Shown here piece by piece: positions 5,532 through 36,047 of a stretch of 64,000 nucleotides of DNA. The first letter of the stretch is position 1. The number at the start of each line of letters is the position of its first letter. This stretch comes from Rhodospirillales bacterium. Its GTDB lineage: Bacteria; Pseudomonadota; Alphaproteobacteria; Rhodospirillales; GLO-3. A program made the position numbers and the translations under genes. The stretch is taken from contig PIVK01000006.1 of NCBI GenBank assembly GCA_003354135.1, forward strand, positions 7,743-71,742, read 5' to 3'. Below the pieces are notes generated by a model. That model was not told where the DNA came from. It did not search any database and saw only the letters and a program-made list of their open reading frames with translations.

Positions 5532-6776
5532 CTAATCCCTCCGGTAGAGTCCGTACCAGACGAAAGCGACTACCTGCAACAGCGTCGTCACGGCAAAGGC
5601 CGCCTGGTAACCCTCGGGGGCGTAGCCGCCCATAGGCGTCTTCGGCCAGAGGTCGATGATGCCGCCGATGGCCCACTGCCCGGCGAAGGCGAAGGTAAAG
5701 ACCATCATGTTGAGCCCTGTGTTGACGCGGCCCGCCAGATTCCTGGGGAACCGACCCGAGAGGATGGCGTAGGGGACGACGCCGGCGGAGCCGAAAAACC
5801 CGAAAGCCACGGCGAGGAGCAGAACCGAGGGAATCCATCCCACCACCATCATCGCCTGGACGCCGAGGAATACCCCCATGCTGAGGAGCGCCACGGTGAT
5901 CGGCTTCAACCCTATCCGCTCGGCCCGCGTCGTCAGCCAGCCGATGACGACGAACCCCGCCACCATGGCCGCAGCGATGATCAAGAGGTGGCTCGCCACG
6001 CCTGCCCGGTCGAGCCCCGCCACGTCCTTGAGCCAGGGGCCTGTCCACAGGCTCTGAATGGCGAGGAAGGCGGCTTGGGAAAAAACGGTGATGGGGGCGA
6101 TGCGCCAGAATACGGGACTGGTGAAAATTTCGCCGACACCGCGCAGTTGGCGGGCGAGTGTCTGCCCGTCCCCTCCCTCCCCCCGTCGGGGAACCACCAC
6201 GAAGACCAAGGCCGCGATGACGAGAGAGAGGAGCCCGAGCCCGAAGAACAGGCCCCGCCAGTCGATGACGCCCAGCAGAATCTCGACCGGGGCCGTAGCG
6301 GAGAGCGCGCCCAGCCCCCCCGCCGCCATCTGCAGCCCGTTGATGAAGGGCAGGCGGTCCGGCGGGAACCAATAGACATAGGCCCTGAAAGCCGCCATCA
6401 AGCACGCCGACACGCCGAGTCCGATGAGTGCCCGCCCCACCACCAGGCCGGCTGTTCCTTCCGCCGCCCCATAGACAACGGCCCCGACGGCGGCAAACAG
6501 GAGCAGGGAGGCCTCGACCCGACGCGACCCGAAACGGTCGAGCAAAACGCCCAAGGGAATCTGAAAGGCGGCGAAGGTCAGAAAATAGGCACTGGTCACC
6601 AGTCCCAGGTCGGCGCCCCCCAGCCCCAGGTCGGCCACAAGATCCGGCGCAATGACCGCATTGACAGTGCGGAAGAGGTAGGAAATCCAATACCCAAAGG
6701 CAAACGGCAGGAACACCCGGACGACAACAGTCAGGCGTTTTCCGTCTTGTGGTGGTTGATGCGAATGCAAGGTCAT
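5532..6776 (-). CDS. MFS transporter
   Basis: 414 aa, about 12 hydrophobic helices, with an MFS-like loop motif between TM2 and TM3 (LDRFGSRRV). Confidence 0.85.
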   Translation of the reverse strand: MTLHSHQPPQDGKRLTVVVRVFLPFAFGYWISYLFRTVNAVIAPDLVADLGLGGADLGLVTSAYFLTFAAFQIPLGVLLDRFGSRRVEASLLLFAAVGAVVYGAAEGTAGLVVGRALIGLGVSACLMAAFRAYVYWFPPDRLPFINGLQMAAGGLGALSATAPVEILLGVIDWRGLFFGLGLLSLVIAALVFVVVPRRGEGGDGQTLARQLRGVGEIFTSPVFWRIAPITVFSQAAFLAIQSLWTGPWLKDVAGLDRAGVASHLLIIAAAMVAGFVVIGWLTTRAERIGLKPITVALLSMGVFLGVQAMMVVGWIPSVLLLAVAFGFFGSAGVVPYAILSGRFPRNLAGRVNTGLNMMVFTFAFAGQWAIGGIIDLWPKTPMGGYAPEGYQAAFAVTTLLQVVAFVWYGLYRRD

Positions 6777-6828
6777 GGCATGAACATCCAGGGTCTATGA
6801 TAGCGCTGATTAGAGGATATGGCGAGAC

Positions 6829-7413
6829 GTGTCCAAACACCGCCACCACACATTTCTGGAACGCACGCAGCGTCAGTTGCATTACAGGCTGGTGATTCCA
6901 TTAAAACGCAGCCACCATTCGCCGGAGCATTCGGCGATGGCCGTGGCCGTCGGGGTGTTCTGGGCCTTCACGCCACTGGTCGGCATCCAGATGTATCTCT
7001 GCCTGATGACCTGGCTGCCGTTCCGGTATTTTCGGCGCCTCAACTTCAACCTCATCATCGCCTGGGCCTGGACCTGGATCAGCAACGTTTTTACCATGCT
7101 GCCCATCTATTATATCTTCTACGTGACCGGGCAGGTCATGCTGGGGCGCTGGGACGACCTGTCGGGGTACGATGGCTTCGTCGGCGCCTGGGACGAGATC
7201 TTCACCACCCACGAGGGGTTCTGGGAATCGCTCGCCGCCTACGCCAAGCTGGTGGCGCTGGAACAGGGCCGGGCGTTGATCATCGGCTGTCTCCCTTACG
7301 CCATCGGCTTCGGCTGGTTAAGCTATGTCTGGTCGCTCAAGTTCGTCCGCCACCGGCGGAGGGAACGCCGCAACCGCCTGCAGCAGAATTCTGAAACTCA
7401 AAAGGGAGTGTGA
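6829..7413 (+). CDS. DUF2062 family membrane protein
   Basis: GTG start with a GAGGA 11 nt upstream. The sequence RSHHSPEHSAMAVAVGVFWAFTPLVGIQMYL is typical of DUF2062. Confidence 0.7.
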   Translation: MSKHRHHTFLERTQRQLHYRLVIPLKRSHHSPEHSAMAVAVGVFWAFTPLVGIQMYLCLMTWLPFRYFRRLNFNLIIAWAWTWISNVFTMLPIYYIFYVTGQVMLGRWDDLSGYDGFVGAWDEIFTTHEGFWESLAAYAKLVALEQGRALIIGCLPYAIGFGWLSYVWSLKFVRHRRRERRNRLQQNSETQKGV

Positions 7414-7418
7414 TTGCC

Positions 7419-8072
7419 ATGCATCTCGTGGTGCGCCTCGTCCTGCCGGCCCTTCTTCTCGCCGTGCTCGCCGCCTGTGGCGACAACGGATCCGGCAACG
7501 TCTACCCCCGGCCGCCGGCGAAAATATCCAACCAGGCGGCCTACGTCTTCTACCTCCACGGCCGCGGGGCCGGCGAAGACGCAGCCCAAGCCCTGGCGGC
7601 AAAGGGTTTCGAGGTCATCGCCCCCCGGCGGACGGCGGAAACGGACCCGGACTTCCACGCCATCGCCGTGAAGGAGTGGCTGCGCGAGTTGCTGGCCCGC
7701 GGGGCCCGCATGGACCACATTGCCCTGGTCGGCACCGGCGAGGGGGGGCGTCTGGCGATGATGGTCTCGGGTCTCACCCAGGTCCCGGCCTCGGCCTTGG
7801 TCGTGCTTGCCGCCTGCCCAAAAACCGGTGCACCCGAGCGACAGGCCTACGAAAGGGTGCTGCGGCTCCATGCGGCGACCATCAAGGGCCGTTTTCTGTC
7901 CGTGGTCGCCGGGAACGACACCGAAACGGGCACCTGCGCCGAAGCATTCGGCAAGGCCAACGGCGCCAACCCCTGGGAGATCGCGCTGCCCGGAATCCCT
8001 AAAGACGCGCCCTTCACCACGTCCGACGAAGCCTGGGTGACCGAGACGGTATCCTGGATTCTGGAGCGTTGA
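7419..8072 (+). CDS. lipoprotein, alpha/beta-hydrolase-like
   Basis: ATG 7419 follows GGGAG. Signal peptide has a lipobox (LLLAVLAAC). The remainder is loosely dienelactone-hydrolase-like. Track start 7410 is GTG. Confidence 0.55.
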   Translation: MHLVVRLVLPALLLAVLAACGDNGSGNVYPRPPAKISNQAAYVFYLHGRGAGEDAAQALAAKGFEVIAPRRTAETDPDFHAIAVKEWLRELLARGARMDHIALVGTGEGGRLAMMVSGLTQVPASALVVLAACPKTGAPERQAYERVLRLHAATIKGRFLSVVAGNDTETGTCAEAFGKANGANPWEIALPGIPKDAPFTTSDEAWVTETVSWILER

Positions 8073-8075
8073 TCC

Positions 8076-9335
8076 ATGGCTCACATGTCGCTTTTCAACA
8101 CTGCGGCCCTCATCCTCACGTTGGCTGCCCTGTTCGGTTATGTGAACCATCGCTGGATCAAGGCACCGCAAACGACCGGGCTGGTGATTGTCGCCCTGCT
8201 GGCCTCGCTCGGCGTCATCGTCTTCGACATCCTGGTGCCGGGGCTGGGGTTGCGCGACGCGGTGGTGGGGGCGGTTGCAGGGATCGACTTCCACGAAGTT
8301 CTGATGAAGGGCATGTTGAGTTTCCTGCTCTTCGCCGGCGCGCTGCACGTGGACCTGGACGAACTCCTGAGCCGCAAGTGGGCCATCGGCTCGATGGCCA
8401 CCCTGGGCGTGCTGCTGTCGACCGCCATCGTTGGTTTCGGGTTCTACGGCCTGAGCAGTTGGCTGGGCCTTCACATCCCGCTCATGTCCTGCCTGGTGTT
8501 CGGGGCACTGATTTCACCCACCGACCCGGTGGCCGTGTTGGGCATCCTGAAGACGGTCGACATCCCGCGCTCGCTTGAGGCCAAGATCGCGGGGGAGAGC
8601 CTGTTTAACGACGGGGTTGGCGTGGTGGTGTTTACGGTGCTGGCCGCCATGGCCTTCGGGGACGGCGGACACGGAGCCATGACCGGGACCGAGATCGCGA
8701 TTCTGTTCCTTCGCGAGACCGTTGGCGGAGCCCTGTTGGGACTCGGCGCGGGGTGGCTCGCATACAGGACCATAAAATCCATCGACGACCACAACCTCGA
8801 AGTCTTGATCACACTGGCGCTGGTCATGGGAGGCTATGCGCTGGCGTTCGCGCTCCATGTTTCGGGCCCCATCGCGGTCGTGGTGGCCGGACTGCTGATC
8901 GGCAATCACGGCACCCGATTCGCAATGACGGGAAAAACGCGGGATCACATGCACAAGTTCTGGTCCCTTCTGGACGAGATTCTCAATGCCGCGCTGTTTC
9001 TGTTGATCGGTTTCGAGGTCATAACACTGAACGTCACCGGCGGAACCATCCTCGCGGCGGCACTCGCCATCCCGTTGGTGCTGGGCGCCCGCTTCATCAG
9101 CGTGTCGACACCCATCATGCTTTTGGGGCTCAAACGCACTTTCACCAGGGGCGCCATTCCCGTTCTGACGTGGGGCGGCCTGAGAGGCGGTATTTCGGTG
9201 GCGCTGGTGCTGTCCCTGCCGAATGTTCCGGACAAGCAGGCACTGCTGAGCGTCACCTATGCGGTGGTGGTGTTTTCTATCGTCGCCCAGGGACTGACCG
9301 TGAAACAGGTCATCCGGGCAACGGTGAAGAAATAG
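8076..9335 (+). CDS. Na+/H+ antiporter (CPA1, NhaP-type)
   Basis: 419 aa polytopic membrane protein. Motifs FGALISPTDPVAV and ESLFNDG are characteristic of CPA1 exchangers. Confidence 0.85.
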   Translation: MAHMSLFNTAALILTLAALFGYVNHRWIKAPQTTGLVIVALLASLGVIVFDILVPGLGLRDAVVGAVAGIDFHEVLMKGMLSFLLFAGALHVDLDELLSRKWAIGSMATLGVLLSTAIVGFGFYGLSSWLGLHIPLMSCLVFGALISPTDPVAVLGILKTVDIPRSLEAKIAGESLFNDGVGVVVFTVLAAMAFGDGGHGAMTGTEIAILFLRETVGGALLGLGAGWLAYRTIKSIDDHNLEVLITLALVMGGYALAFALHVSGPIAVVVAGLLIGNHGTRFAMTGKTRDHMHKFWSLLDEILNAALFLLIGFEVITLNVTGGTILAAALAIPLVLGARFISVSTPIMLLGLKRTFTRGAIPVLTWGGLRGGISVALVLSLPNVPDKQALLSVTYAVVVFSIVAQGLTVKQVIRATVKK

Positions 9336-9344
9336 ACCGGGAGC

Positions 9345-10046
9345 TTAAAACAATCCCAAGCTTTTGAACGAGGCGGAGCCCGACCGGCCGACGACCACAT
9401 GGTCATGCAGGCTGATCCCCAAGGCCTCCGCCGCCGCCTGCACTTCCCGGGTCATCTCGATGTCGGCACGGGACGGCTCGGGATCGCCGGAGGGGTGGTT
9501 GTGAACCAGGATCAGTGCCGTAGCCCCGAGTTCCAATGCCCGTTTAACCACCTCGCGCGGATAGACGGGCGTGTGATCGACGGTGCCCTTCTGCTGCACC
9601 TCGTCGGCAATGATCGCGTTCTTCCTATCGAGGAACAGGACGCGGAATCGTTCCGTATCGTCATAGGCCATGGCGGCACGACAGTAGGAAACCACGGCTT
9701 CCCAACTGCCGAAAACCGGCTTTGTCCCCACATCCTCGCGGGCTAGCCTCAGCCCCGCCTGGCGGGCCGCCCTTAGGAGCACCACCGTGCTCTCTTTGAC
9801 CCCTTCGATCTCCATCAGCCGTTCCGGGGCCGCCGACAGGACGGCCGCCAACGTGCCAAAACGGTCGATCAGCGCCTTGGCCAACGGTTTCACGTCGCGA
9901 CGTGAAATGGCATAGAACAGAAGCAGTTCCAGAATCTCGTAATCCGGAAGCGAGTCTCCGCCCTCGCCTAGGAAGCGCGACTTCAGCCGTTGCCGATGTC
10001 CGTGATAATGGGGTTTGGGATTCCGTTTCTCTCCCGCCCCAGCCAT
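9345..10046 (-). CDS. radC: RadC-family JAB/MPN domain protein
   Basis: JAMM motif [17 protein letters not shown] and the N-terminal HhH-like region typical of RadC. Confidence 0.9.
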
Positions 10047-10048
10047 GA

Positions 10049-10870
10049 TCAGCTCCGATACGGCGGCCGGTCGAGGCCGGCAGGCGACAGGGTGAACACT
10101 TCACAGCCGTCGGCGGTGACGCCGATGGAATGCTCGAACTGGGCCGATAGCTTGCGGTCCTTGGTCACCGCCGTCCAGCCGTCGGCCAGGACCTTCACCT
10201 CGTGGCGCCCGGCGTTGATCATGGGTTCGATGGTGAAGAACATGCCCTCGCGCAGACTCAGCCCCTCCCCCGGATTGCCGAAGTGCATGACGTTAGGGGC
10301 GTCGTGAAACACCCGGCCCAATCCATGGCCACAGAAATCGCGCACAACGGAAAAGCGGTGCTTTTCGGCATATTCCTGGATGGCGTGCCCAATGTCCCCC
10401 AACGTGTTGCCTGGCTTGACCGCTTTGATCCCCCGCCACATGGCATCGAAAGTCACATCCACCAGACGCTCGGCCTGGCGTTTTACCTTGCCGACAAAAA
10501 ACATGCGGCTGGTATCCCCAAACCAGCCGTCCAAAACCGCCGTAACGTCGATGTTTATGATGTCCCCGTCTTCCAGCGTCTTGTCTCCGGGAATACCGTG
10601 GCAGACCACGTGGTTGACCGAGGTGCAGGAGGACTTCGGGAAACCGCGGTAGTCGAGCGGAGCCGGCACCGCCCCATGCTCGACGATAAACTTGTGACAG
10701 AGATCGTCCAGCGCGCCGGTCGTCACTCCGGGCATCACCTGCGGAGCAATGTAGTCGAGCGTCTCCGCCGCCAGGCGTCCAGCACGGCGCATGCCTTCGA
10801 AGTCCTCGGGCGCATAGATGACAATGCGCCGGCTGTTGATCATAATATGATCCGTATCCATGTCGTTCAT
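10049..10870 (-). CDS. map: type I methionine aminopeptidase
   Basis: ATG at 10870 ([19 protein letters not shown]...). Full-length MetAP-I similarity ([33 protein letters not shown]). The longer track ORF runs into the upstream REP-like element. Confidence 0.9.
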
Positions 10871-10904
10871 GGTCGCGTCACGTTGTAAGGGTTCGAGACA
10901 AAAT

Positions 10905-10976
10905 AACCACTCCGCCCTGCTTGTCTTTATTGTCCGTCCGCCGCGTTGCGGACGAACAAAAATCCGGCGCAATCCG
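10905..10976 (-). repeat. REP-like intergenic hairpin element, single-unit copy
   Basis: Reverse-complement match to both ends of 43298..43437. Contains the hairpin GTCCGC-cgcgtt-GCGGAC. Lies between the sfsA stop and the map start. Confidence 0.85.
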
Positions 10977-11000
10977 TGTCTCGAATCCTAAGCGAACGGC

Positions 11001-11711
11001 CTACAGAGTCAAGGGCAGGGGCGCATCCACCTCGATCGATTGCGCCGAGACCCGACAGATATAGCACAAGGTCTCGACCCCGGCCGCCCGCGCCGTCCCA
11101 AAGGCCCGGCCATACGTCGGATCGATATCGGCGGCAATGGAGAAACAGGTGCAGTCCGGCCTCTGAACCAGATAGAGCATCACGCCCCGGTGTCCCTGGC
11201 GGACCATTTCCGAGAGTTCGGCCAAATGCTTGGTCCCACGCGCCGTCACCGCGTCGGGGAACTCGGCCAGGCCGTCCGGGCCGGGATCGCGTCTGAGGGT
11301 CACGTTCTTCACTTCGACATAACATGCGGGCAGTCCGCCGCCTTCCAGCAACAGATCGATGCGGGAGTTCCTGCCGTACTTCACTTCGCGACGAACGGTC
11401 TGGTAGCCCCGCAGTTCGGCAATGGTGCCGTTTGCAACGGCTTCCTCGACCAGACGGTTGGGGTGCTGGGTGTTGATCCCGACCAAAACCCCTCCAATCC
11501 GTATTAGTTCCCAGGTCCATTTGAGTTTCCGGTCGGGATTTCGGGCAGGCGACAGCCAGACCTCGGCCCCCGGCGTTTTGACGTTCAGCATGGAACCGGA
11601 ATTGGCGCAGTGCGCCGTCACCACCTTGCCGCCACCCAAATCCACGTCGGCAAGGAACCGTTTGTAGCGTTTGACAAGGGTGCCCTGCACCAAGGGGACG
11701 GAGAATTCCAT
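11001..11711 (-). CDS. sfsA: sugar fermentation stimulation protein / DNA-binding nuclease-like SfsA
   Basis: ATG 11711 gives MEFSVPLVQGTLVKRYKRFLADV, the canonical SfsA N-terminus. Similarity is full length. Confidence 0.9.
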   Translation of the reverse strand: MEFSVPLVQGTLVKRYKRFLADVDLGGGKVVTAHCANSGSMLNVKTPGAEVWLSPARNPDRKLKWTWELIRIGGVLVGINTQHPNRLVEEAVANGTIAELRGYQTVRREVKYGRNSRIDLLLEGGGLPACYVEVKNVTLRRDPGPDGLAEFPDAVTARGTKHLAELSEMVRQGHRGVMLYLVQRPDCTCFSIAADIDPTYGRAFGTARAAGVETLCYICRVSAQSIEVDAPLPLTL

Positions 11712-27447: not shown

Positions 27448-27510
27448 TGAGGTGGTCCCACATCGTTGAACAGTTTGGCGGCTCAGTTAAGGTGTTGTCT
27501 AATTCCGATT
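27448..27510 (+). repeat. copy B of the dispersed repeat; left direct repeat of the integrase islet
   Basis: tgaggtggtcccacatcgttgaacagtttggcggctcagttaaggtgttgtctaattccgatt. Confidence 0.9.
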
Positions 27511-27797: not shown

Positions 27798-28901
27798 ATG
27801 CCTAAGTTGACCAAACGCACCATCGATGCCGCTCAAGCGGATACTGAGCGGGATTACTTCATTTGGGATGATGAGATGCCCGGCTTTGGTTTGCGTGTGC
27901 TGAGGAGCGGCAAGAAGACCTACCAAATTCAATACAGGCATGGCGGGCGGACGCGGCGCAATTCCATCGGCATGCATGGCACCATCACCCCGGATGAAGC
28001 CCGCAAGCTTGCCAAGGAAAAACTTGGGCGTGTGGCTAAGGGTGACAACCCGGCAGAAGAACGCGCCATTCATCGCGGCGCTTCAACCGTTGCGGACGTA
28101 TGCGAACGGTTCATGAATGAATACGTCCCCATTCATTGCAAGGAAACCACGACAAAGGAATACCGCCACTCGGTTGATATGTTTATCAAGCCCGTCATAG
28201 GCACCCGCAAAGTTCCCGATATCATCCGCACCTATATCGCCAAGCTACACCATGACCTAAGAGACAAACCCTATCAGGCCAACCGGACGCTTGGTGTCAT
28301 ATCCGTAATCTTTAACCAGTGCGAGATTTGGGGCCTACGCCCGGATGGTTCCAACCCCTGTCGCCACGTCAAAAAATACACGGAAAAGAAACGCGAACGC
28401 TTCTTGTCAGAAGAAGAACTCAAACGGCTTTGGGAAACCCTAGACGAATGCGAACGGGACGGAAGCGAAAGCCCCGCCGCATGCAACGCCTCCCACCTCC
28501 TCATCCTTACCGGATGCCGCTTAGGTGAAGTCCAAACGTTGAAATGGGATTACATCAAAGAAGACGGCATCTATCTGCCAGACTCGAAGACCGGGGCAAA
28601 GAAGGTCTATATCGGACAAGCCGTACACGACGCCCTCACCAAGGTCGAACGCACAGAAGACAACCCTTCCGTCATATCTGGCACTGTTGAAGGCCAACAT
28701 CTTAAAGACCGACAACGCCCTTGGCGGCGTATCCGTGGGAAAGCGGAACTCGGCGATCTGCGCATTCATGACCTAAGACATTCGTTTGCATCATTTGGAC
28801 TGGCAAGCGGATTGAGCCTTGCAGAGATTGGTAAACTGCTTGGACATTCTCAGGTGCAGACTACGGCACGGTATGCTCATTTGGCTGAGGAGATCGCCTA
28901 A
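27798..28901 (+). CDS. int: tyrosine-type site-specific integrase (P4-like, DUF4102 arm-binding N-terminus)
   Basis: MPKLTKRTIDAA...YFIWDDEMPGFGLRV (DUF4102), a catalytic region with HDLRHSFAS and LGHSQVQTTARYAH. Confidence 0.92.
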   Translation: MPKLTKRTIDAAQADTERDYFIWDDEMPGFGLRVLRSGKKTYQIQYRHGGRTRRNSIGMHGTITPDEARKLAKEKLGRVAKGDNPAEERAIHRGASTVADVCERFMNEYVPIHCKETTTKEYRHSVDMFIKPVIGTRKVPDIIRTYIAKLHHDLRDKPYQANRTLGVISVIFNQCEIWGLRPDGSNPCRHVKKYTEKKRERFLSEEELKRLWETLDECERDGSESPAACNASHLLILTGCRLGEVQTLKWDYIKEDGIYLPDSKTGAKKVYIGQAVHDALTKVERTEDNPSVISGTVEGQHLKDRQRPWRRIRGKAELGDLRIHDLRHSFASFGLASGLSLAEIGKLLGHSQVQTTARYAHLAEEIA

Positions 28902-30548: not shown

Positions 30549-30611
30549 TGAGGTGGTCCCATATCGTTGGACAGTTTGGCGGCTCAGTTAAGGTGTTGTC
30601 TAATTCCGGTT
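30549..30611 (+). repeat. copy C of the dispersed repeat; right direct repeat of the integrase islet
   Basis: tgaggtggtcccatatcgttggacagtttggcggctcagttaaggtgttgtctaattccggtt. Confidence 0.9.
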
Positions 30612-30701: not shown

Positions 30702-31082
30702 TCATTCCTTCGCAGGAAGAACCCGCAGGTCGTATTTCATGACCATGTCATCGGCGGTCACAAACACCAACCCCTCGCAATTGGCCTGGGAGACCAACAG
30801 GCGGTCGAAAGGGTCCCGGTGGTGGCCGGGCAGGTCTCCCGTACCCTCGGCATGCTCGATCGTGACCGGCAGGCGATCGAAGCCACTATGATCGACGCCT
30901 TCGCCGAACGGTCCCGGTAACGTCAGCTTTCCAAGTCGGACCTTGATCGCACACTCCCAGGCCGACGCCGCGGAGACGTAAACCTGCCGGGCGTTCGTAA
31001 TGCGGTCCGTGGCGACGGGACCGATCCGCCTGCCGCCCCCGCGCCACCAAAGAAACACACGTGTATCGAGCAACAGCCTCAC
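30702..31082 (-). CDS. vapC: type II toxin, PIN-domain ribonuclease VapC
   Basis: GTG start overlapping the antitoxin stop (GTGA). (M)RLLLDTRVFLWW..., acidic PIN residues, and C-terminal HRDPFDRLLVSQA typical of this VapC subgroup. Confidence 0.88.
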   Translation of the reverse strand: MRLLLDTRVFLWWRGGGRRIGPVATDRITNARQVYVSAASAWECAIKVRLGKLTLPGPFGEGVDHSGFDRLPVTIEHAEGTGDLPGHHRDPFDRLLVSQANCEGLVFVTADDMVMKYDLRVLPAKE

Positions 31083-31318
31083 GGCGTTTCCCCTTCGAAG
31101 GCGGCGAGAACGGATTCGGGAAGGGGGGCGTCGAAATCATCTGCAATCACCAAGCCCGTCTCCCATCCGCCCGGCTTGCGCTTTGGTGGGGCAAGGGGCA
31201 CGAGGCGGGCCATCGGTTTCCGCCCCTTGGCAATGATAATCTCCTCTCCTGCCGCCGCTTCGGTGACCAAGGTCGAGAGATGTGTTTTCGCATCGTAGAG
31301 TTTGACGGTCTTCGTCAT
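31079..31318 (-). CDS. vapB: type II antitoxin (Phd/YefM-type)
   Basis: ATG 31318: MTKTVKLYDAKTHLSTLVTEAAAGEEIIIAKGRKPMARLVP is the classic Phd/YefM-like antitoxin N-terminus. Overlaps vapC by 4 nt. Confidence 0.8.
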   Translation of the reverse strand: MTKTVKLYDAKTHLSTLVTEAAAGEEIIIAKGRKPMARLVPLAPPKRKPGGWETGLVIADDFDAPLPESVLAAFEGETP

Positions 31319-31575
31319 AACAACCTCGCTTAACCAACTTGACCAAATTGTACTGAGCTTGGTTAAGTTGGTCAATTGCGAAATTTAGGGTTTCCCCCCC
31401 CTGCCGGGCTCCTTTTATGTGTTTGTGTCAGTGCACTCGCACCGAAATGGCTGTCAGATAGCCGTAACTCAAAGCGGGGCATGGACACCCCGCTTTCTTG
31501 TGTGTGTCTTACGCAAAGCTCCTTGACTCCAGTCTGAATGTTGTGTAAGATATACACACCCTCACAGAGGAAGTT

Positions 31576-31803: not shown

Positions 31804-32196
31804 ATGCACCGCTACTATCCAGCCACCGTGGACCGCGAAGGCAGCGTCTTCGGTATCACCTTCCCCGACTTCCCGGGCTGCGTTTCCTCGGGGGCTTGCG
31901 CGGAAGACGCCATTGAAGCGGGGCACGAAGCCCTGTCCGGGCACGTGGCCGCGATGGCCTCGGACGGTGACACCATCCCCGACCCCACCCCGGTGGAACA
32001 GGTCACCTGGGAAGAGGATGAAGGCGTGATCTGCGTCACCTTGGTGCCGGTCAACCTGCCCGGCCGCGCCGTGCGGCTGAATATCTCCATGGAGGAAAGT
32101 CTGGTGGAAGCCATCGACGCGGCGGCTGGGCGCGGCAAGCGTTCCGCCTTCCTGGCCGAAGCGGCCAAGGCCGAATTGGCACGCAGGCACGCCTGA
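31804..32196 (+). CDS. hicB: HicB family antitoxin with C-terminal RHH/CopG-like domain
   Basis: MHRYYPATVDREGSVFGITFPDFPGCVSSG...AIEAGHEAL (HicB RNase-H-like fold) plus a C-terminal LNISMEESLVEAIDAAAGRGKRSAFL. Confidence 0.85.
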   Translation: MHRYYPATVDREGSVFGITFPDFPGCVSSGACAEDAIEAGHEALSGHVAAMASDGDTIPDPTPVEQVTWEEDEGVICVTLVPVNLPGRAVRLNISMEESLVEAIDAAAGRGKRSAFLAEAAKAELARRHA

Positions 32197-32319
32197 CCGC
32201 CTTGGCTGCCGCGTCCAGGGTGACCGTGCGTGCACGGATGGTAATCGTCGTCACCCAGGCACCGCGTGTTCGTAAACCACCCGCGCCACACCGCACCGAA
32301 ATGGCTGTCAGGCCGCCGC

Positions 32320-33987
32320 CTATTTTTTGGCGGCGTTGATCCCTGCCTCTGGATTGTCCAGGCCCAGCTTGTACTCCAAGGAGACATGGTGGAACCGGGC
32401 GAACGAATAGTCGTCATGGATGGCGAAGCCCAAGGTGTAGACATTGCCGGCCTCGATGTTGACGAACCCGGGGCTCCCCATGTTCAACGGGCGGGTCATG
32501 GTGACCACCCATTGGCCGTCCCGGAGACCGCCCTCGTACTTGATCTTTTCCGACGGTGCCAGGACACGTTGGTCAAGGACGTACCCCGCCTCGGATTTGC
32601 CCGACGACAGCCAGCGCGACAAATCCATAAAGGTGCCGGCCGCCTTCATGGCGTCGATGTCGGCCGCCGGCTTAAGCTTATCCCAACCGCCGCGCGGCCC
32701 TTCATTGCCGCGGATCTCCAACTCGGTCCGGCTGTCCACGGTGTACTTGGTGATGCCGTGCGAGACGTCGAGACGGCTCGCCGCGTCGCCCGCCGCAGCT
32801 TTGGGGTGGTCCGGCATGTAACGCGAGTCGTGATGACAGGTCACCCAGCAGCCGGCGTAAGAGGCATGTTCAGACTTGTCGTCGTCGATCATCACCGCCA
32901 GCTTGGACTGGTTCTCCGGGTCCATCTTTCCGCCATCAACGAACGGCGCCGGGGTATGGGCCGTATCCGGCCACCGGAAGTGCATGTACAGGTTGGCCCC
33001 GTCGTGCGCCGCCTTCACGTTGACCGCGAAACCGGGGCGCTTGTCCGGGATTACGAACGCCGGGTCCTCGGCCTTGGAACCGTCGACGATCTTGGCGCCC
33101 ATTTCGATCTGCTCACCCTCATGGCACTCGGCGCAGGGATCCTGGATCTTCTTGAGCGCCCGCGCGCCACCGTGATCGGAGCCCTTGAACACCCACTCGA
33201 AGGATGTCTGCCCGGGGAAGAAGACCGGGATATCCTTGCCCTCAACGCTCGCCCAATCGACGCCCGTGCTGTCGGTGCCCGCGCTGACCGGGGCCTCCGA
33301 AACCGCCGGGGCCTCCGCAACCTTGGTAGGCTGTTGCACGAACTTGGCCATTTCGGCACCCGGATCTTCGACCACCGGCAGGGCACGGTCATCGGCTTGG
33401 CCGTCGTAGGGGTCTTCTTCGTCGGCCAGCAGTTTGTGGATCGGCCGGTGGGCGATTCCCTTGTGACAATCAATGCAGGTCAGGCCGTCTTTTTTGGCAT
33501 CGGTGTGCTGCTTCCAGGCCCTGCGCTTTTGGCGCTTGTCCGTCATCGCCCGCCAGGCATGGCAGTTGCGGCATTCGCGAGAGTCCGTATCCTTCATCGC
33601 CTTCCAGACCTTTTTGGCCATGGTCAGGCGTTTGGCTTCGAATTCTTCCAGGGTGTCCACGGTGCCGAGCATCCAGTACCACAGTTCCTTCGTCGCCTGG
33701 ATCTTGCGCACGAACTTATGCACCCAGGGCCGGGGAACATGGCAGTCGGAGCAAATGGCCCGGACGCCGGAGCGGTTCTGATAGTGAACCGTCTGCTGGT
33801 ACTCCGGATAGACAGCCTGGTCCATCTCGTGGCACGAGACGCAGAATTCCAGGGTGTTGGTCGCTTCCATTGCGGTGTTGTAGGCCCCCCAGAACAGGAT
33901 GCCGACAACGAAGAACACCGCAGCAGAGCCAAGAGGCGCCCCTAGAATCTTGCTCTTCAGCAGATGGCCGAATGTACCCTCTTTCAT
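32320..33987 (-). CDS. nirT: NapC/NirT-type tetraheme cytochrome c fused to a C-terminal domain with a fifth CxxCH and an EB_dh/DMSO-reductase-gamma-like heme domain
   Basis: ATG 33987 (MKEGTFGHLL...), one N-terminal TM helix, CVSCH, CSDCH, CRNCH, CIDCHKGIAH (NapC/NirT layout). Then a linker, CAECH, and ...VKAAHDGANLYMHFRWPD...AVMIDDD...CWVTCHHD. Sits immediately downstream of nirS. Confidence 0.85.
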   Translation of the reverse strand: MKEGTFGHLLKSKILGAPLGSAAVFFVVGILFWGAYNTAMEATNTLEFCVSCHEMDQAVYPEYQQTVHYQNRSGVRAICSDCHVPRPWVHKFVRKIQATKELWYWMLGTVDTLEEFEAKRLTMAKKVWKAMKDTDSRECRNCHAWRAMTDKRQKRRAWKQHTDAKKDGLTCIDCHKGIAHRPIHKLLADEEDPYDGQADDRALPVVEDPGAEMAKFVQQPTKVAEAPAVSEAPVSAGTDSTGVDWASVEGKDIPVFFPGQTSFEWVFKGSDHGGARALKKIQDPCAECHEGEQIEMGAKIVDGSKAEDPAFVIPDKRPGFAVNVKAAHDGANLYMHFRWPDTAHTPAPFVDGGKMDPENQSKLAVMIDDDKSEHASYAGCWVTCHHDSRYMPDHPKAAAGDAASRLDVSHGITKYTVDSRTELEIRGNEGPRGGWDKLKPAADIDAMKAAGTFMDLSRWLSSGKSEAGYVLDQRVLAPSEKIKYEGGLRDGQWVVTMTRPLNMGSPGFVNIEAGNVYTLGFAIHDDYSFARFHHVSLEYKLGLDNPEAGINAAKK

Positions 33988-34146
33988 AACAACGAGCCCT
34001 CTACCAGATAGTTTGCCGAATGTTGTTTTTCGTTGCGCCGCCAACAACGGCCAAAGGTTCGATTAGATCCAATGAACACCTGCCGCGAACCGAAAAGAGG
34101 CGGGCATCGGGGATGCCCGCCTCTGTATTTCGGTGACACCACAATA

Positions 34147-35754
34147 TCAGGTGATGTGGTGCTTCCGGTTGTAGACGTTGAACTTGCCCGTCGGGGTCTC
34201 GAGGTTCTTGATGCGAGCCTTCTCTTCGAGAGTCTTCGAGTCGTAAATCACGATCTCGCCCTTCGACCAGTTTTTCTTGCCGCCACGGACCCAGACCGAA
34301 ATCCAAACCTCGGTGCCGTCCTTGTTGAACTCCTCGTGCACGGCCACGGCCTTTTCGGTCTTGGTCGGACGCAGAGTCTTCACGATCTTGCCGGTCTTTT
34401 TGTCGAGAACCTTGATCGACTGCTGGACGGCAGGCTCCGGGTGCTTCGTCTGGTCGGCGAAGACATACGGCGAGTTCGGGTGCGTCCGGATGAACAGGCC
34501 CGCGCCGTCGGTCGGGGTCTTGTAGCAGACCTTCCAAGCCTTGCCGGCGTTACCCTTGGGATCGTTGCCCCATGTGGTGATCATGCCCTCGCCGAGGTGC
34601 ACGGTGCCACCGACCGGGCCACACTTCGGATCGATCCAGTTGGCGCCCGGACCCGGGTGCGGCTTCTTGCCGGTCTCGATCGAGGCGACGAACTTACGAT
34701 CGACGGAGTCCATAATCTCGATACGGTTCGAGGCGTTGGCGGCGATCTGGAAGTAACGCAGCGTCGGATCGAAGAACCCGTCGTGCAGGAACTTGTGGCT
34801 GTTGATCATCTCGATACGCAGATTTTGAAGATCACTGTAGTCCACCTGCCAGAGCTGACCGAGTTCCTTCACCGCGACGATCCAGGTCGGAGCGTTCGGG
34901 GTGTTGTAGACAGCGGCCACGCGGGCCTCGTTGACATAAACGCCGTCAACGTTCACGCCTCGGGTCGAGACGACCTTCAGCGGGGCCATGGTCTTGGCGT
35001 CGAGGATCACGAAGTGCGGCGGCCAGTAACCGCCGCCGATGACGTACTTGTCTTTCCACTTGCCGTACTGGGCGACAGCCACGTCACGGGCGTCCGAGGC
35101 GACCTGCGTCTCGGCGACAACGGCCGGCGGATCCATCCAAAGGTCGATCTTGGTCATCTTGCCGTCACGGCCCATGGTGTACCAGAAGCGACCGCTCGAC
35201 GATTCCTTCATCACATGCACGGCGTAGCCGGTGTCGATCTTGGCGATGGTCTCTTTCTTGTCGCCGTCGATCACGCCGGCCATACCCGCGTCACGCAGGA
35301 TGACGATGAAGAAGTTCTCCCAGTTGCGGCCATGCATCGGCTTCGTCGGATACTTATCCGGCGCGATCTTGACGACATGGCGCTTTTTCATGGTGGCCAG
35401 ATCCATCTCGGCCGGCGGCGGTGCCGGCATCTGGATGTAGGTCGACATCTTGCGAATCTGGTCCTTGGTGAACAGATCGTCGAAGTTGTTCATACCACCT
35501 TCGGTACCAAGGGTGATGATCTTCTCCAGACGCTTTTGACCCAATTTCCTGGTGCTCTTCGGCTCGAGGCCCTTGCCAGTAGCTCCCTTACGCAGCACAC
35601 CGTGACAACCGGCGCAACGCTGGAAATAAAGGGTCTTGGCTTCCTCGAAGTCCGCTTCCGAAAGACTTGGCTCCGCTGCGGTGGCGGGGGTGGTGCCCAT
35701 GGAAAGGCTGGCCACCAGGCCGAGCACGGAGGCGGTGAGTGCGATTTTCCTCAT
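34147..35754 (-). CDS. nirS: cytochrome cd1 nitrite reductase
   Basis: 535 aa with signal peptide, heme c site CAGCHGVLRKGATGK, and full-length d1 beta-propeller similarity. Confidence 0.95.
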   Translation of the reverse strand: MRKIALTASVLGLVASLSMGTTPATAAEPSLSEADFEEAKTLYFQRCAGCHGVLRKGATGKGLEPKSTRKLGQKRLEKIITLGTEGGMNNFDDLFTKDQIRKMSTYIQMPAPPPAEMDLATMKKRHVVKIAPDKYPTKPMHGRNWENFFIVILRDAGMAGVIDGDKKETIAKIDTGYAVHVMKESSSGRFWYTMGRDGKMTKIDLWMDPPAVVAETQVASDARDVAVAQYGKWKDKYVIGGGYWPPHFVILDAKTMAPLKVVSTRGVNVDGVYVNEARVAAVYNTPNAPTWIVAVKELGQLWQVDYSDLQNLRIEMINSHKFLHDGFFDPTLRYFQIAANASNRIEIMDSVDRKFVASIETGKKPHPGPGANWIDPKCGPVGGTVHLGEGMITTWGNDPKGNAGKAWKVCYKTPTDGAGLFIRTHPNSPYVFADQTKHPEPAVQQSIKVLDKKTGKIVKTLRPTKTEKAVAVHEEFNKDGTEVWISVWVRGGKKNWSKGEIVIYDSKTLEEKARIKNLETPTGKFNVYNRKHHIT

Positions 35755-36002
35755 CGTTAGCTCCCAGTTTGTTGCCGTTGTTCCGAGACAACAATTTCCC
35801 GAAACGGTTTACCTGGCTCCCGGGGGGCATAAATGCAAGTCCACCGAGCAGCCGACTATGCCGGAAATGTTCACGAGAGCATCCCTAGAATCCCCGCCCC
35901 CGACACGCTTTTCACTTTATCCCCAGAAACTGCAAAAGCCAACTGTTGAATCCGTGAATTCCGCCTAGATCCATGAATTCCACATCAAATATTTGATGTA
36001 GA

Positions 36003-36016
36003 TCAAACGCGACCGG
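36003..36016. promoter_or_regulatory. FNR/Dnr/NnrR-type box (perfect TTGAT-N4-ATCAA)
   Basis: TTGATgtagATCAA in the nirS/nirC divergent intergenic region. Its left half also belongs to the 16-bp palindrome catcaaatatttgatg (35993-36008). Confidence 0.7.
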
Positions 36017-36033
36017 CGAAGGCTTGATCTTGG

Positions 36034-36047
36034 TCAAATTTCCTGAT
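36034..36047. promoter_or_regulatory. second FNR-type box (TTGAT-N4-GTCAA)
   Basis: TTGATcttgGTCAA, 31 bp centre-to-centre from the first box. Confidence 0.6.

Follow-up and report, generated by a model that had tools for sequence, protein, structure and literature searches.

By what route do quinol electrons reach the cytochrome cd1 nitrite reductase NirS? The question is raised by a gene in a 64,000-nucleotide stretch of DNA from a Rhodospirillales bacterium (GenBank assembly GCA_003354135.1, contig PIVK01000006.1, positions 7,743 to 71,742 of the forward strand); the whole stretch is called the window below, and coordinates are counted from its first nucleotide. The gene (32320..33987, minus strand) lies 160 bases downstream of nirS (34147..35754, minus strand), the product of which is recognised by a Cytochrom_D1 match (E=6e-115) and a cytochrome c domain, and it encodes a tetraheme module of the NapC/NirT type joined to a domain of the EB_dh family. 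It is likely that this protein is a natural fusion of a NirT-type tetraheme quinol dehydrogenase with a periplasmic domain of the NirB type (akin to cytochrome c-552, with the EB_dh beta-sandwich fold), and that it delivers quinol electrons to NirS.

The fused cytochrome and its heme sites

The open reading frame is complete (555 residues, from an ATG at 33987 to a stop codon at 32320-32322) and belongs to a genuine gene, which codes for a multi-heme protein that is presumably anchored in the membrane, as is evident from the list of reading frames and the sequence itself, from Pfam and from homologues; an NCBI record holds the identical 555-residue protein. A preliminary description of the window, drawn from its letters alone, had already seen here one fused frame directly downstream of nirS, with a NirT/NapC module and an EB_dh-like domain on a single polypeptide, and the coordinates, the frame, the Pfam matches and the gene order all agree with it. 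An alternative in-frame start, a TTG at 34047, would lengthen the protein by 20 residues to 575; it lies close to the hairpin that follows nirS and has no backing from homologues. In an alignment of 96 homologues with the same single-domain architecture, all match the window protein over its full length, with 50-76% identity, the best being 76%.

The NapC/NirT-type tetraheme module occupies residues 1-185 (33433..33987, minus strand), as delimited by the PF03264 and TIGR02161 profiles, motif positions and invariant alignment columns. It opens with a hydrophobic stretch at about residues 17-40, LGSAAVFFVVGILFWGAYNTAM (33868..33939, minus strand), which an AlphaFold2 model renders as a helix at residues 19-42 and which presumably serves as the membrane anchor. 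This single N-terminal helix is followed by four CxxCH motifs on the minus strand: CVSCH at residue 49 (33829-33843), CSDCH at residue 79 (33739-33753), CRNCH at residue 139 (33559-33573) and CIDCH at residue 171 (33463-33477). The first stands in the context CVSCHEM, in which M55 is invariant across the alignment. The arrangement is that of the NapC/NirT family, and the Cytochrom_NNT profile (PF03264) matches residues 22-182 (E=3.2e-70) and scores 235.8 bits, the cutoff being 24.1. Among the NCBIfam models, similarity to the NapC, NirT and TorC types is confined to the N-terminal 181 residues. The design does recall the pentaheme cytochromes TorC/DorC, in which a tetraheme quinol dehydrogenase likewise carries a domain, C-terminal and monoheme, that docks with the terminal reductase. 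Nonetheless, assignment to the TorC-type cytochromes was rejected since the C-terminal domains are unrelated: the N-terminal module matches only positions 23-179 of the 387 in TIGR02162, the match stops at residue 181, and its 215.9 bits compare with a cutoff of 478.2.

An acidic, Ala/Pro-rich linker of about 58 residues (186-243; 33259..33432, minus strand) joins the two parts. It has low pLDDT scores (predicted local distance difference test) in the model, which fall below 50 at residues 219-230, where the chain appears disordered, and both its length and its sequence differ among the aligned homologues.

The remainder, residues 244-555 (32323..33258, minus strand), is an EB_dh-fold domain resembling NirB (cytochrome c-552), as judged by Pfam, Foldseek, profile searches and hhalign. 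The resemblance to EB_dh that the preliminary description had proposed is borne out by Pfam, in which PF09459 matches from residue 244 with 122.9 bits against a cutoff of 33.3 (E=2.8e-35). The AlphaFold2 model, built from the 96-sequence alignment (mean pLDDT 81, predicted template modelling score 0.76), is likewise consistent with a beta-sandwich: the top Foldseek match in the PDB is 2ivf_C, the gamma subunit of ethylbenzene dehydrogenase (E=2.3e-8; TM-score 0.58 relative to the target), followed by 7b04_C, the NxrC subunit of nitrite oxidoreductase (E=2.9e-7), and CBM9 carbohydrate-binding modules are also found. A profile of the domain run against PDB sequences recovers 2ivf_C and 7b04_C too. 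A sequence search of PDB chains with the full protein gave no match, so that only profile and fold searches reached EbdC and NxrC. Thus, the earlier suggestion that the domain resembles the heme-b gamma subunits holds at the level of fold. With EbdC and NxrC the domain shares this fold and a weak but significant profile similarity; they are, however, subunits of molybdoenzymes that bind heme b non-covalently, whereas the window domain, at about 10% identity, carries two c-type motifs and is attached to a quinol dehydrogenase.

The first of these motifs, CAECH (residues 285-289; 33121..33135, minus strand), is the fifth CxxCH of the protein, and all five lie where they had been described. The second, CWVTCH (residues 380-385; 32833..32850, minus strand), has the form CX3CH and is a putative sixth site for a c-type heme. 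The longer string CWVTCHHD had been noted before, at what proves to be residues 380-387, and had been read as a heme-b-like sequence, a reading that finds no support here: the string contains a family-invariant CX3CH motif of heme-c type. In 238 family proteins, every EB_dh-like domain has a single CxxCH and a single CWx[TS]CH, as counted by length class and motif number. In the 96-sequence alignment C285, C288, H289, C380, W381, C384, H385, D387 and M391 are invariant, and so are H272, M366, H524, H533 and H534; candidates for distal heme ligands, all of them invariant, are H272, M366, M391, H524, H533 and H534. The domain therefore has the set of features expected of the NirB type, namely a CxxCH and a CxxxCH about 87-95 residues apart, a length of about 270-320 residues and conserved His and Met candidates, a definition that partly follows Devreese et al. 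2000 (Arch Biochem Biophys 381:53). In that work the heme cysteines of a NirB homologue from Rhodocyclus tenuis are reportedly at positions 41, 44, 128 and 132 (CxxC and CxxxC), and His29, Met114, Met139, His209 and His218 are said to be candidate sixth ligands. These reported spacings equal those of H272/C285, M366/C380, C380/M391 and H524/H533 in the window protein. Judging from these patterns, the domain probably bears two c-type hemes, which would bring the whole protein to six. Of the extra c-heme plus heme b proposed earlier, the c-heme motif is real; the heme b finds no support, and the invariant CWx[TS]CH fits a diheme NirB. We know of no solved structure for an EB_dh-fold diheme domain and of no purified member of the fusion family; the real interest lies with the family more than with this locus, in the probable c-type diheme domain on this fold, in the cassette of nirS, nirTB and cupredoxin that would bypass bc1, and in the reuse of the split NirT and NirB-like pair next to MtrA/MtrB-type genes.

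Probable kinship with NirB and spread of the architecture

In Pseudomonas (Stutzerimonas) stutzeri, the tetraheme NirT and the diheme NirB (cytochrome c-552) are encoded downstream of nirS (PMC13086519, PMC8954225); nirS, nirT and nirB share one polycistronic mRNA, and a path from NirT through NirB to NirS has been proposed (PMC8954225). In vivo nitrite reduction is reported to need NirT (PMC13086519, citing Jungst 1991). The window locus is alike in that a tetraheme and then a probably diheme cytochrome part are encoded directly after nirS. It differs from the nirSTBM cluster of P. stutzeri in that the NirT and NirB-type parts form one polypeptide, joined by the linker, and in that no nirM was noted among the called reading frames of the window.

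The preliminary description had stated that nirB is absent. This does not stand, since the C-terminal domain is homologous from end to end to stand-alone EB_dh proteins encoded beside nirT. A search of 1.84 billion representative proteins yielded many such relatives of about 300-340 residues with signal peptides; they have one CxxCH, and most have a CWx[TS]CH as well, with the two motifs about 87 residues apart. Alignment of the fused with the stand-alone domain by hhalign gives a probability of 100% (E=4.6e-88, 289 columns). In one nir cluster the split form is laid out as nirT (204 residues), EB_dh (341 residues, P0396) and then nirECFDLGHJN, with nirS divergent. As the stand-alone homologue thus stands in the same nirT-EB_dh order as in P. 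stutzeri, nirB appears to be present in the window, in fused form. Several database sources also label family members 'cytochrome C552'. A 'fused NirTB' has been reported from the strain Halomonas sp. 2A (PMC13086519, citing Li et al. 2018); this and database entries called 'NapC/NirT family cytochrome c', 'ethylbenzene dehydrogenase-related protein' or 'cytochrome C552' have the same architecture in the same place after nirS.

To assess how widely the architecture is spread, a profile of the domain was run against a single genome for each species. Relatives are encoded at no fewer than 550 sites, and gene order was read from the best 80 of these loci, among which no Stutzerimonas locus occurs. 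The hosts belong mainly to the Alphaproteobacteria (Rhodospirillales, Thalassospiraceae, Hyphomicrobiales, Sneathiellales, Kiloniellales and Azospirillum) and the Gammaproteobacteria (Sedimenticola, Thiodiazotropha, Chromatiales, Thiogranum and Aliikangiella). In 77 of the 80 loci the domain is directly preceded by a NirT module, the other three being cut by contig ends; nirS directly precedes the fusion in 63 of 65 evaluable loci, and a cupredoxin gene directly follows it in 72 of 79. The cassette order is accordingly nirS, hairpin, fusion, cupredoxin. Magnetospirillum, Terasakiella and Sedimenticola have the order nirS, fusion, cupredoxin, and in Magnetospirillum sp. WYHS-4 the C-terminal domain is 64% identical to that of the window. 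On finished plasmids from Azospirillum brasilense Sp7 (p4) and Ruegeria, RefSeq shows a single coding sequence labelled 'NapC/NirT family cytochrome c', with nirS on one side of it and a plastocyanin/azurin-family gene on the other. The survey beside nirS that the preliminary description had proposed thus favours its placement of the gene, and at the same time removes the impression of an unusual fusion that it conveyed, given the number of matches and the 'fused NirTB' already named in PMC13086519. The window gene is a typical family member and no discovery in itself. The family carries generic annotations only, although the fused architecture has been noted in the literature; literature searches on the Pfam/InterPro families, on CX3CH and on nirT together with pseudoazurin brought up no work that characterises it.

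Searches with the full protein and with its C-terminal 331 residues reveal two length classes, both with PF03264 and PF09459: hundreds of clusters of about 555-580 residues with one EB_dh-like domain, and forms of about 910-960 residues with two in tandem. Among the best 80 loci, 65 are of the one-domain and 15 of the two-domain type. The long forms (Sedimenticola, Thiodiazotropha, Terasakiella, Magnetovirga; P0002-P0120) share the NirT module, the domain type and the cassette of nirS, fusion and cupredoxin, but with two domains they would hold eight putative hemes against six in the window protein, the domain of which resembles their first domain about as closely as their second. Within one protein the paired NirB-like domains are 67-89% identical (L004, L005, L011), and they usually agree in the middle residues of CxxCH (CTTCH/CTTCH, CASCH/CASCH), which differ between species. 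This likeness within proteins suggests repeated duplication or gene conversion.

Some further features of the related loci may be mentioned. The cupredoxin of relatives is small and has a type-1 copper-like pattern, KRTSHSV...C.PH...M.G. Many gammaproteobacterial loci have a second nirN/nirF-like cytochrome-D1 gene after it, and some relatives have, within the nir neighbourhood that holds the fusion, an additional NirT-like gene of the ordinary kind, about 200 residues long (L087, 11667-12263; L037, 1263-1781). Stand-alone NirB-like EB_dh proteins of 308-321 residues also occur in clusters of four genes that have no nir genes near them (L089, L090, L091, L092; at about 6300-11400 in each), in which a NirT-like tetraheme protein (about 203 residues) is followed by EB_dh, an MtrA-like multiheme protein (about 325 residues) and an MtrB/PioB porin (about 760 residues). 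The pair of NirT and NirB-like proteins seems to be reused there in porin-cytochrome conduits.

The locus and its expression

On the strand opposite to nirS, a divergent operon carries nirC, nirF, nirD/L/G/H-like genes, nirJ and nirN. The intergenic region between nirS and nirC-F holds two FNR/DNR-type boxes 31 bp apart (35993..36037). One of them, TTGATGTAGATCAA, is located some 240 bp upstream of nirS and is the only perfect match to TTGATNNNNATCAA in the window; the other, TTGATCTTGGTCAA, has one mismatch and lies 31 bp further upstream. A simple scan detected no promoter of the fusion gene's own. Its transcription probably starts at the FNR/DNR-box promoter of nirS, with which it would then be co-transcribed. 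Between the two genes there is a terminator-like hairpin (34096..34124, minus strand), a GC-rich stem of 13 bp followed by a T-rich tail, TTTTCGGTT. Of 77 nirS-fusion spacers of relatives, 48 contain a comparable hairpin, against 0.15 expected from mononucleotide shuffles; it sits 20-45 nt after the nirS stop codon and often has a GGCGGG...CCCGCC core. Such an element fits partial termination or transcript stabilisation, by which nirS would be kept above its electron donor.

The other side of the gene holds what is probably mobile DNA. A segment of 854 bp with a HicB-like antitoxin gene (31804-32196, plus strand) is enclosed by the two copies, 89% identical, of a 27-nt direct repeat (31438-31464 and 32292-32318), the second of which stops one base short of the fusion stop codon; the segment has the look of a small inserted cassette, at the position that the cupredoxin gene has in relatives. 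A Phd/PIN toxin-antitoxin pair (30702-31375, minus strand) adjoins an integrase island, a low-GC (43%) segment of about 3.1 kb that is flanked by a 63-nt direct repeat (27448-27510 and 30549-30611, 95% identical) and contains a tyrosine integrase gene (27798-28901) and a 476-residue reading frame. This segment probably represents an integrated element. The 63-nt repeat showed neither a tRNA nor an Rfam family, and Rfam gave no match between 26.5 and 36.5 kb. With the HicB cassette, the toxin-antitoxin pair and the integrase island all lying after the stop codon, the carrier gene may have been displaced or may be elsewhere in the genome.

The proposed route to NirS and its alternatives

On the reading that we prefer, the N-terminal helix would anchor the protein in the inner membrane, heme 1 (CVSCHEM) would oxidise quinol, and electrons would pass through the four NirT hemes and over the flexible linker to the tethered NirB-like domain, which most likely has two further covalent hemes, on CAECH and CWVTCH. 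From there they would reach NirS either directly or by way of a small soluble carrier, which in most relatives is probably the cupredoxin whose gene follows immediately downstream. This route would bypass the bc1 complex; the intercistronic hairpin would lower the level of the fusion relative to nirS. The preliminary description had pictured a self-contained wire from quinol to NirS that replaces soluble carriers. A quinol-to-NirS role is still the best reading of the gene order, but self-containment is hard to maintain: because most relatives encode a cupredoxin downstream, the usual system probably still works with a soluble carrier.

Several observations weigh against the preferred reading. 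The TIGR02161 (napC_nirT) score of 250.5 bits is under the curated cutoff of 310.6, and the protein thus belongs to the NapC/NirT family by Pfam but is no canonical NapC/NirT by the NCBI subfamily threshold. CX3CH is an atypical heme motif, and the sixth heme site is a putative one. The assignment of the C-terminal domain to the P. stutzeri NirB type draws on gene context, source names and literature statements. If the hairpin stops transcription fully, as it may, the fusion gene would have to be read from a promoter of its own. Finally, tblastn with the cassette cupredoxin gave no significant match anywhere in the window, whereas most loci of the family carry this gene.

Other explanations may be set against the fusion of NirT with a NirB-type domain. 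The five c-hemes plus a heme-b EB_dh domain of the type II dimethyl sulfoxide (DMSO) reductase gamma subunits, as originally pictured, are suggested by the likeness in sequence and fold to EB_dh and NxrC, whose characterised members bind heme b; this is unlikely, given that CWx[TS]CH is invariant in every domain examined. Moreover, the related NirB is described as a diheme c-type cytochrome (PMC13086519, PMC8954225), yet the stand-alone homologues have one CxxCH, and if a diheme protein has a single CxxCH, the CX3CH must bind the second heme. Assignment to these gamma subunits (TIGR03477, DMSO_red_II_gam) was also rejected, at 19.3 bits against a cutoff of 169.85 and with no partner genes: no molybdopterin or iron-sulfur subunit genes (alpha, beta) are adjacent to the fusion gene. 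That two genes, nirT and nirB, were joined through a frameshift or a lost stop codon, by an error of sequencing or assembly, might be thought of because separate nirT and EB_dh genes exist in other genomes, and a frameshift was the danger that the preliminary description itself had named. The comparative data practically rule this out, since the open frame passes through a linker that is present, and variable in sequence, in 96 independent homologues, the loci are fused wherever contig ends do not intervene, and RefSeq has single coding sequences on finished plasmids.

It is also conceivable, though improbable, that the fusion acts mainly as a reductive activator or regulator of NirS, the bulk of the electrons coming from bc1 through soluble cytochromes or cupredoxins. 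PMC13086519, which cites Zajicek et al., suggests that NirT may be an activating partner and may tie to nitrate control of nitrite reduction, and the hairpin implies a low stoichiometry relative to NirS. Against this, the conserved cassette with its cupredoxin looks like a complete electron-delivery chain, the reported requirement for NirT in vivo points to more than activation, and six hemes with a tethered domain would seem excessive for an activator. There is very little likelihood that the protein belongs to another pathway, or runs in reverse from periplasmic or extracellular donors to the quinone pool, with its adjacency to nirS incidental. CymA and ImoA, relatives of NapC/NirT, have been proposed to work in both directions (PMC9600427, PMC6295460), and on three gammaproteobacterial contigs without nir genes, split pairs of NirT-like and EB_dh proteins stand beside genes for an MtrA-like decaheme protein and an MtrB/PioB porin; the fused form, however, keeps its place directly downstream of nirS in nearly all evaluable genomes, and that of the window lies in a nir cluster that is complete and has an FNR/DNR box.

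Taken together, the fusion of a NirT-type quinol dehydrogenase with a NirB-type domain leads to a wider proposal, to which we give slightly less than an even chance: nirS, NirT::NirB and cupredoxin might form a widespread, self-sufficient quinol:nitrite module that bypasses bc1, with, as its core, a c-type cytochrome bearing two covalent hemes (one on CX3CH) on an EB_dh/CBM9-like beta-sandwich, and the NirB-like domain might be a general periplasmic adaptor joining NapC/NirT quinol dehydrogenases to varied sinks or sources. If this is true, the cupredoxin-less copy of the window would test whether the fusion can serve NirS directly. Members of the family are common among Alpha- and Gammaproteobacteria of marine and sediment habitats, sulfur-oxidising symbionts included. 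The electron supply to cytochrome cd1 affects the energy yield of denitrification and the accumulation of nitrite; indeed, nirTB has been linked to Stutzerimonas strains with full nitrite accumulation (PMC13086519), and electrons passing through NirT and NirB would leave out the bc1 complex, which translocates protons. As the fused form shows, the two proteins act as one unit, and this form offers genetics and biochemistry a single-gene handle on the route.

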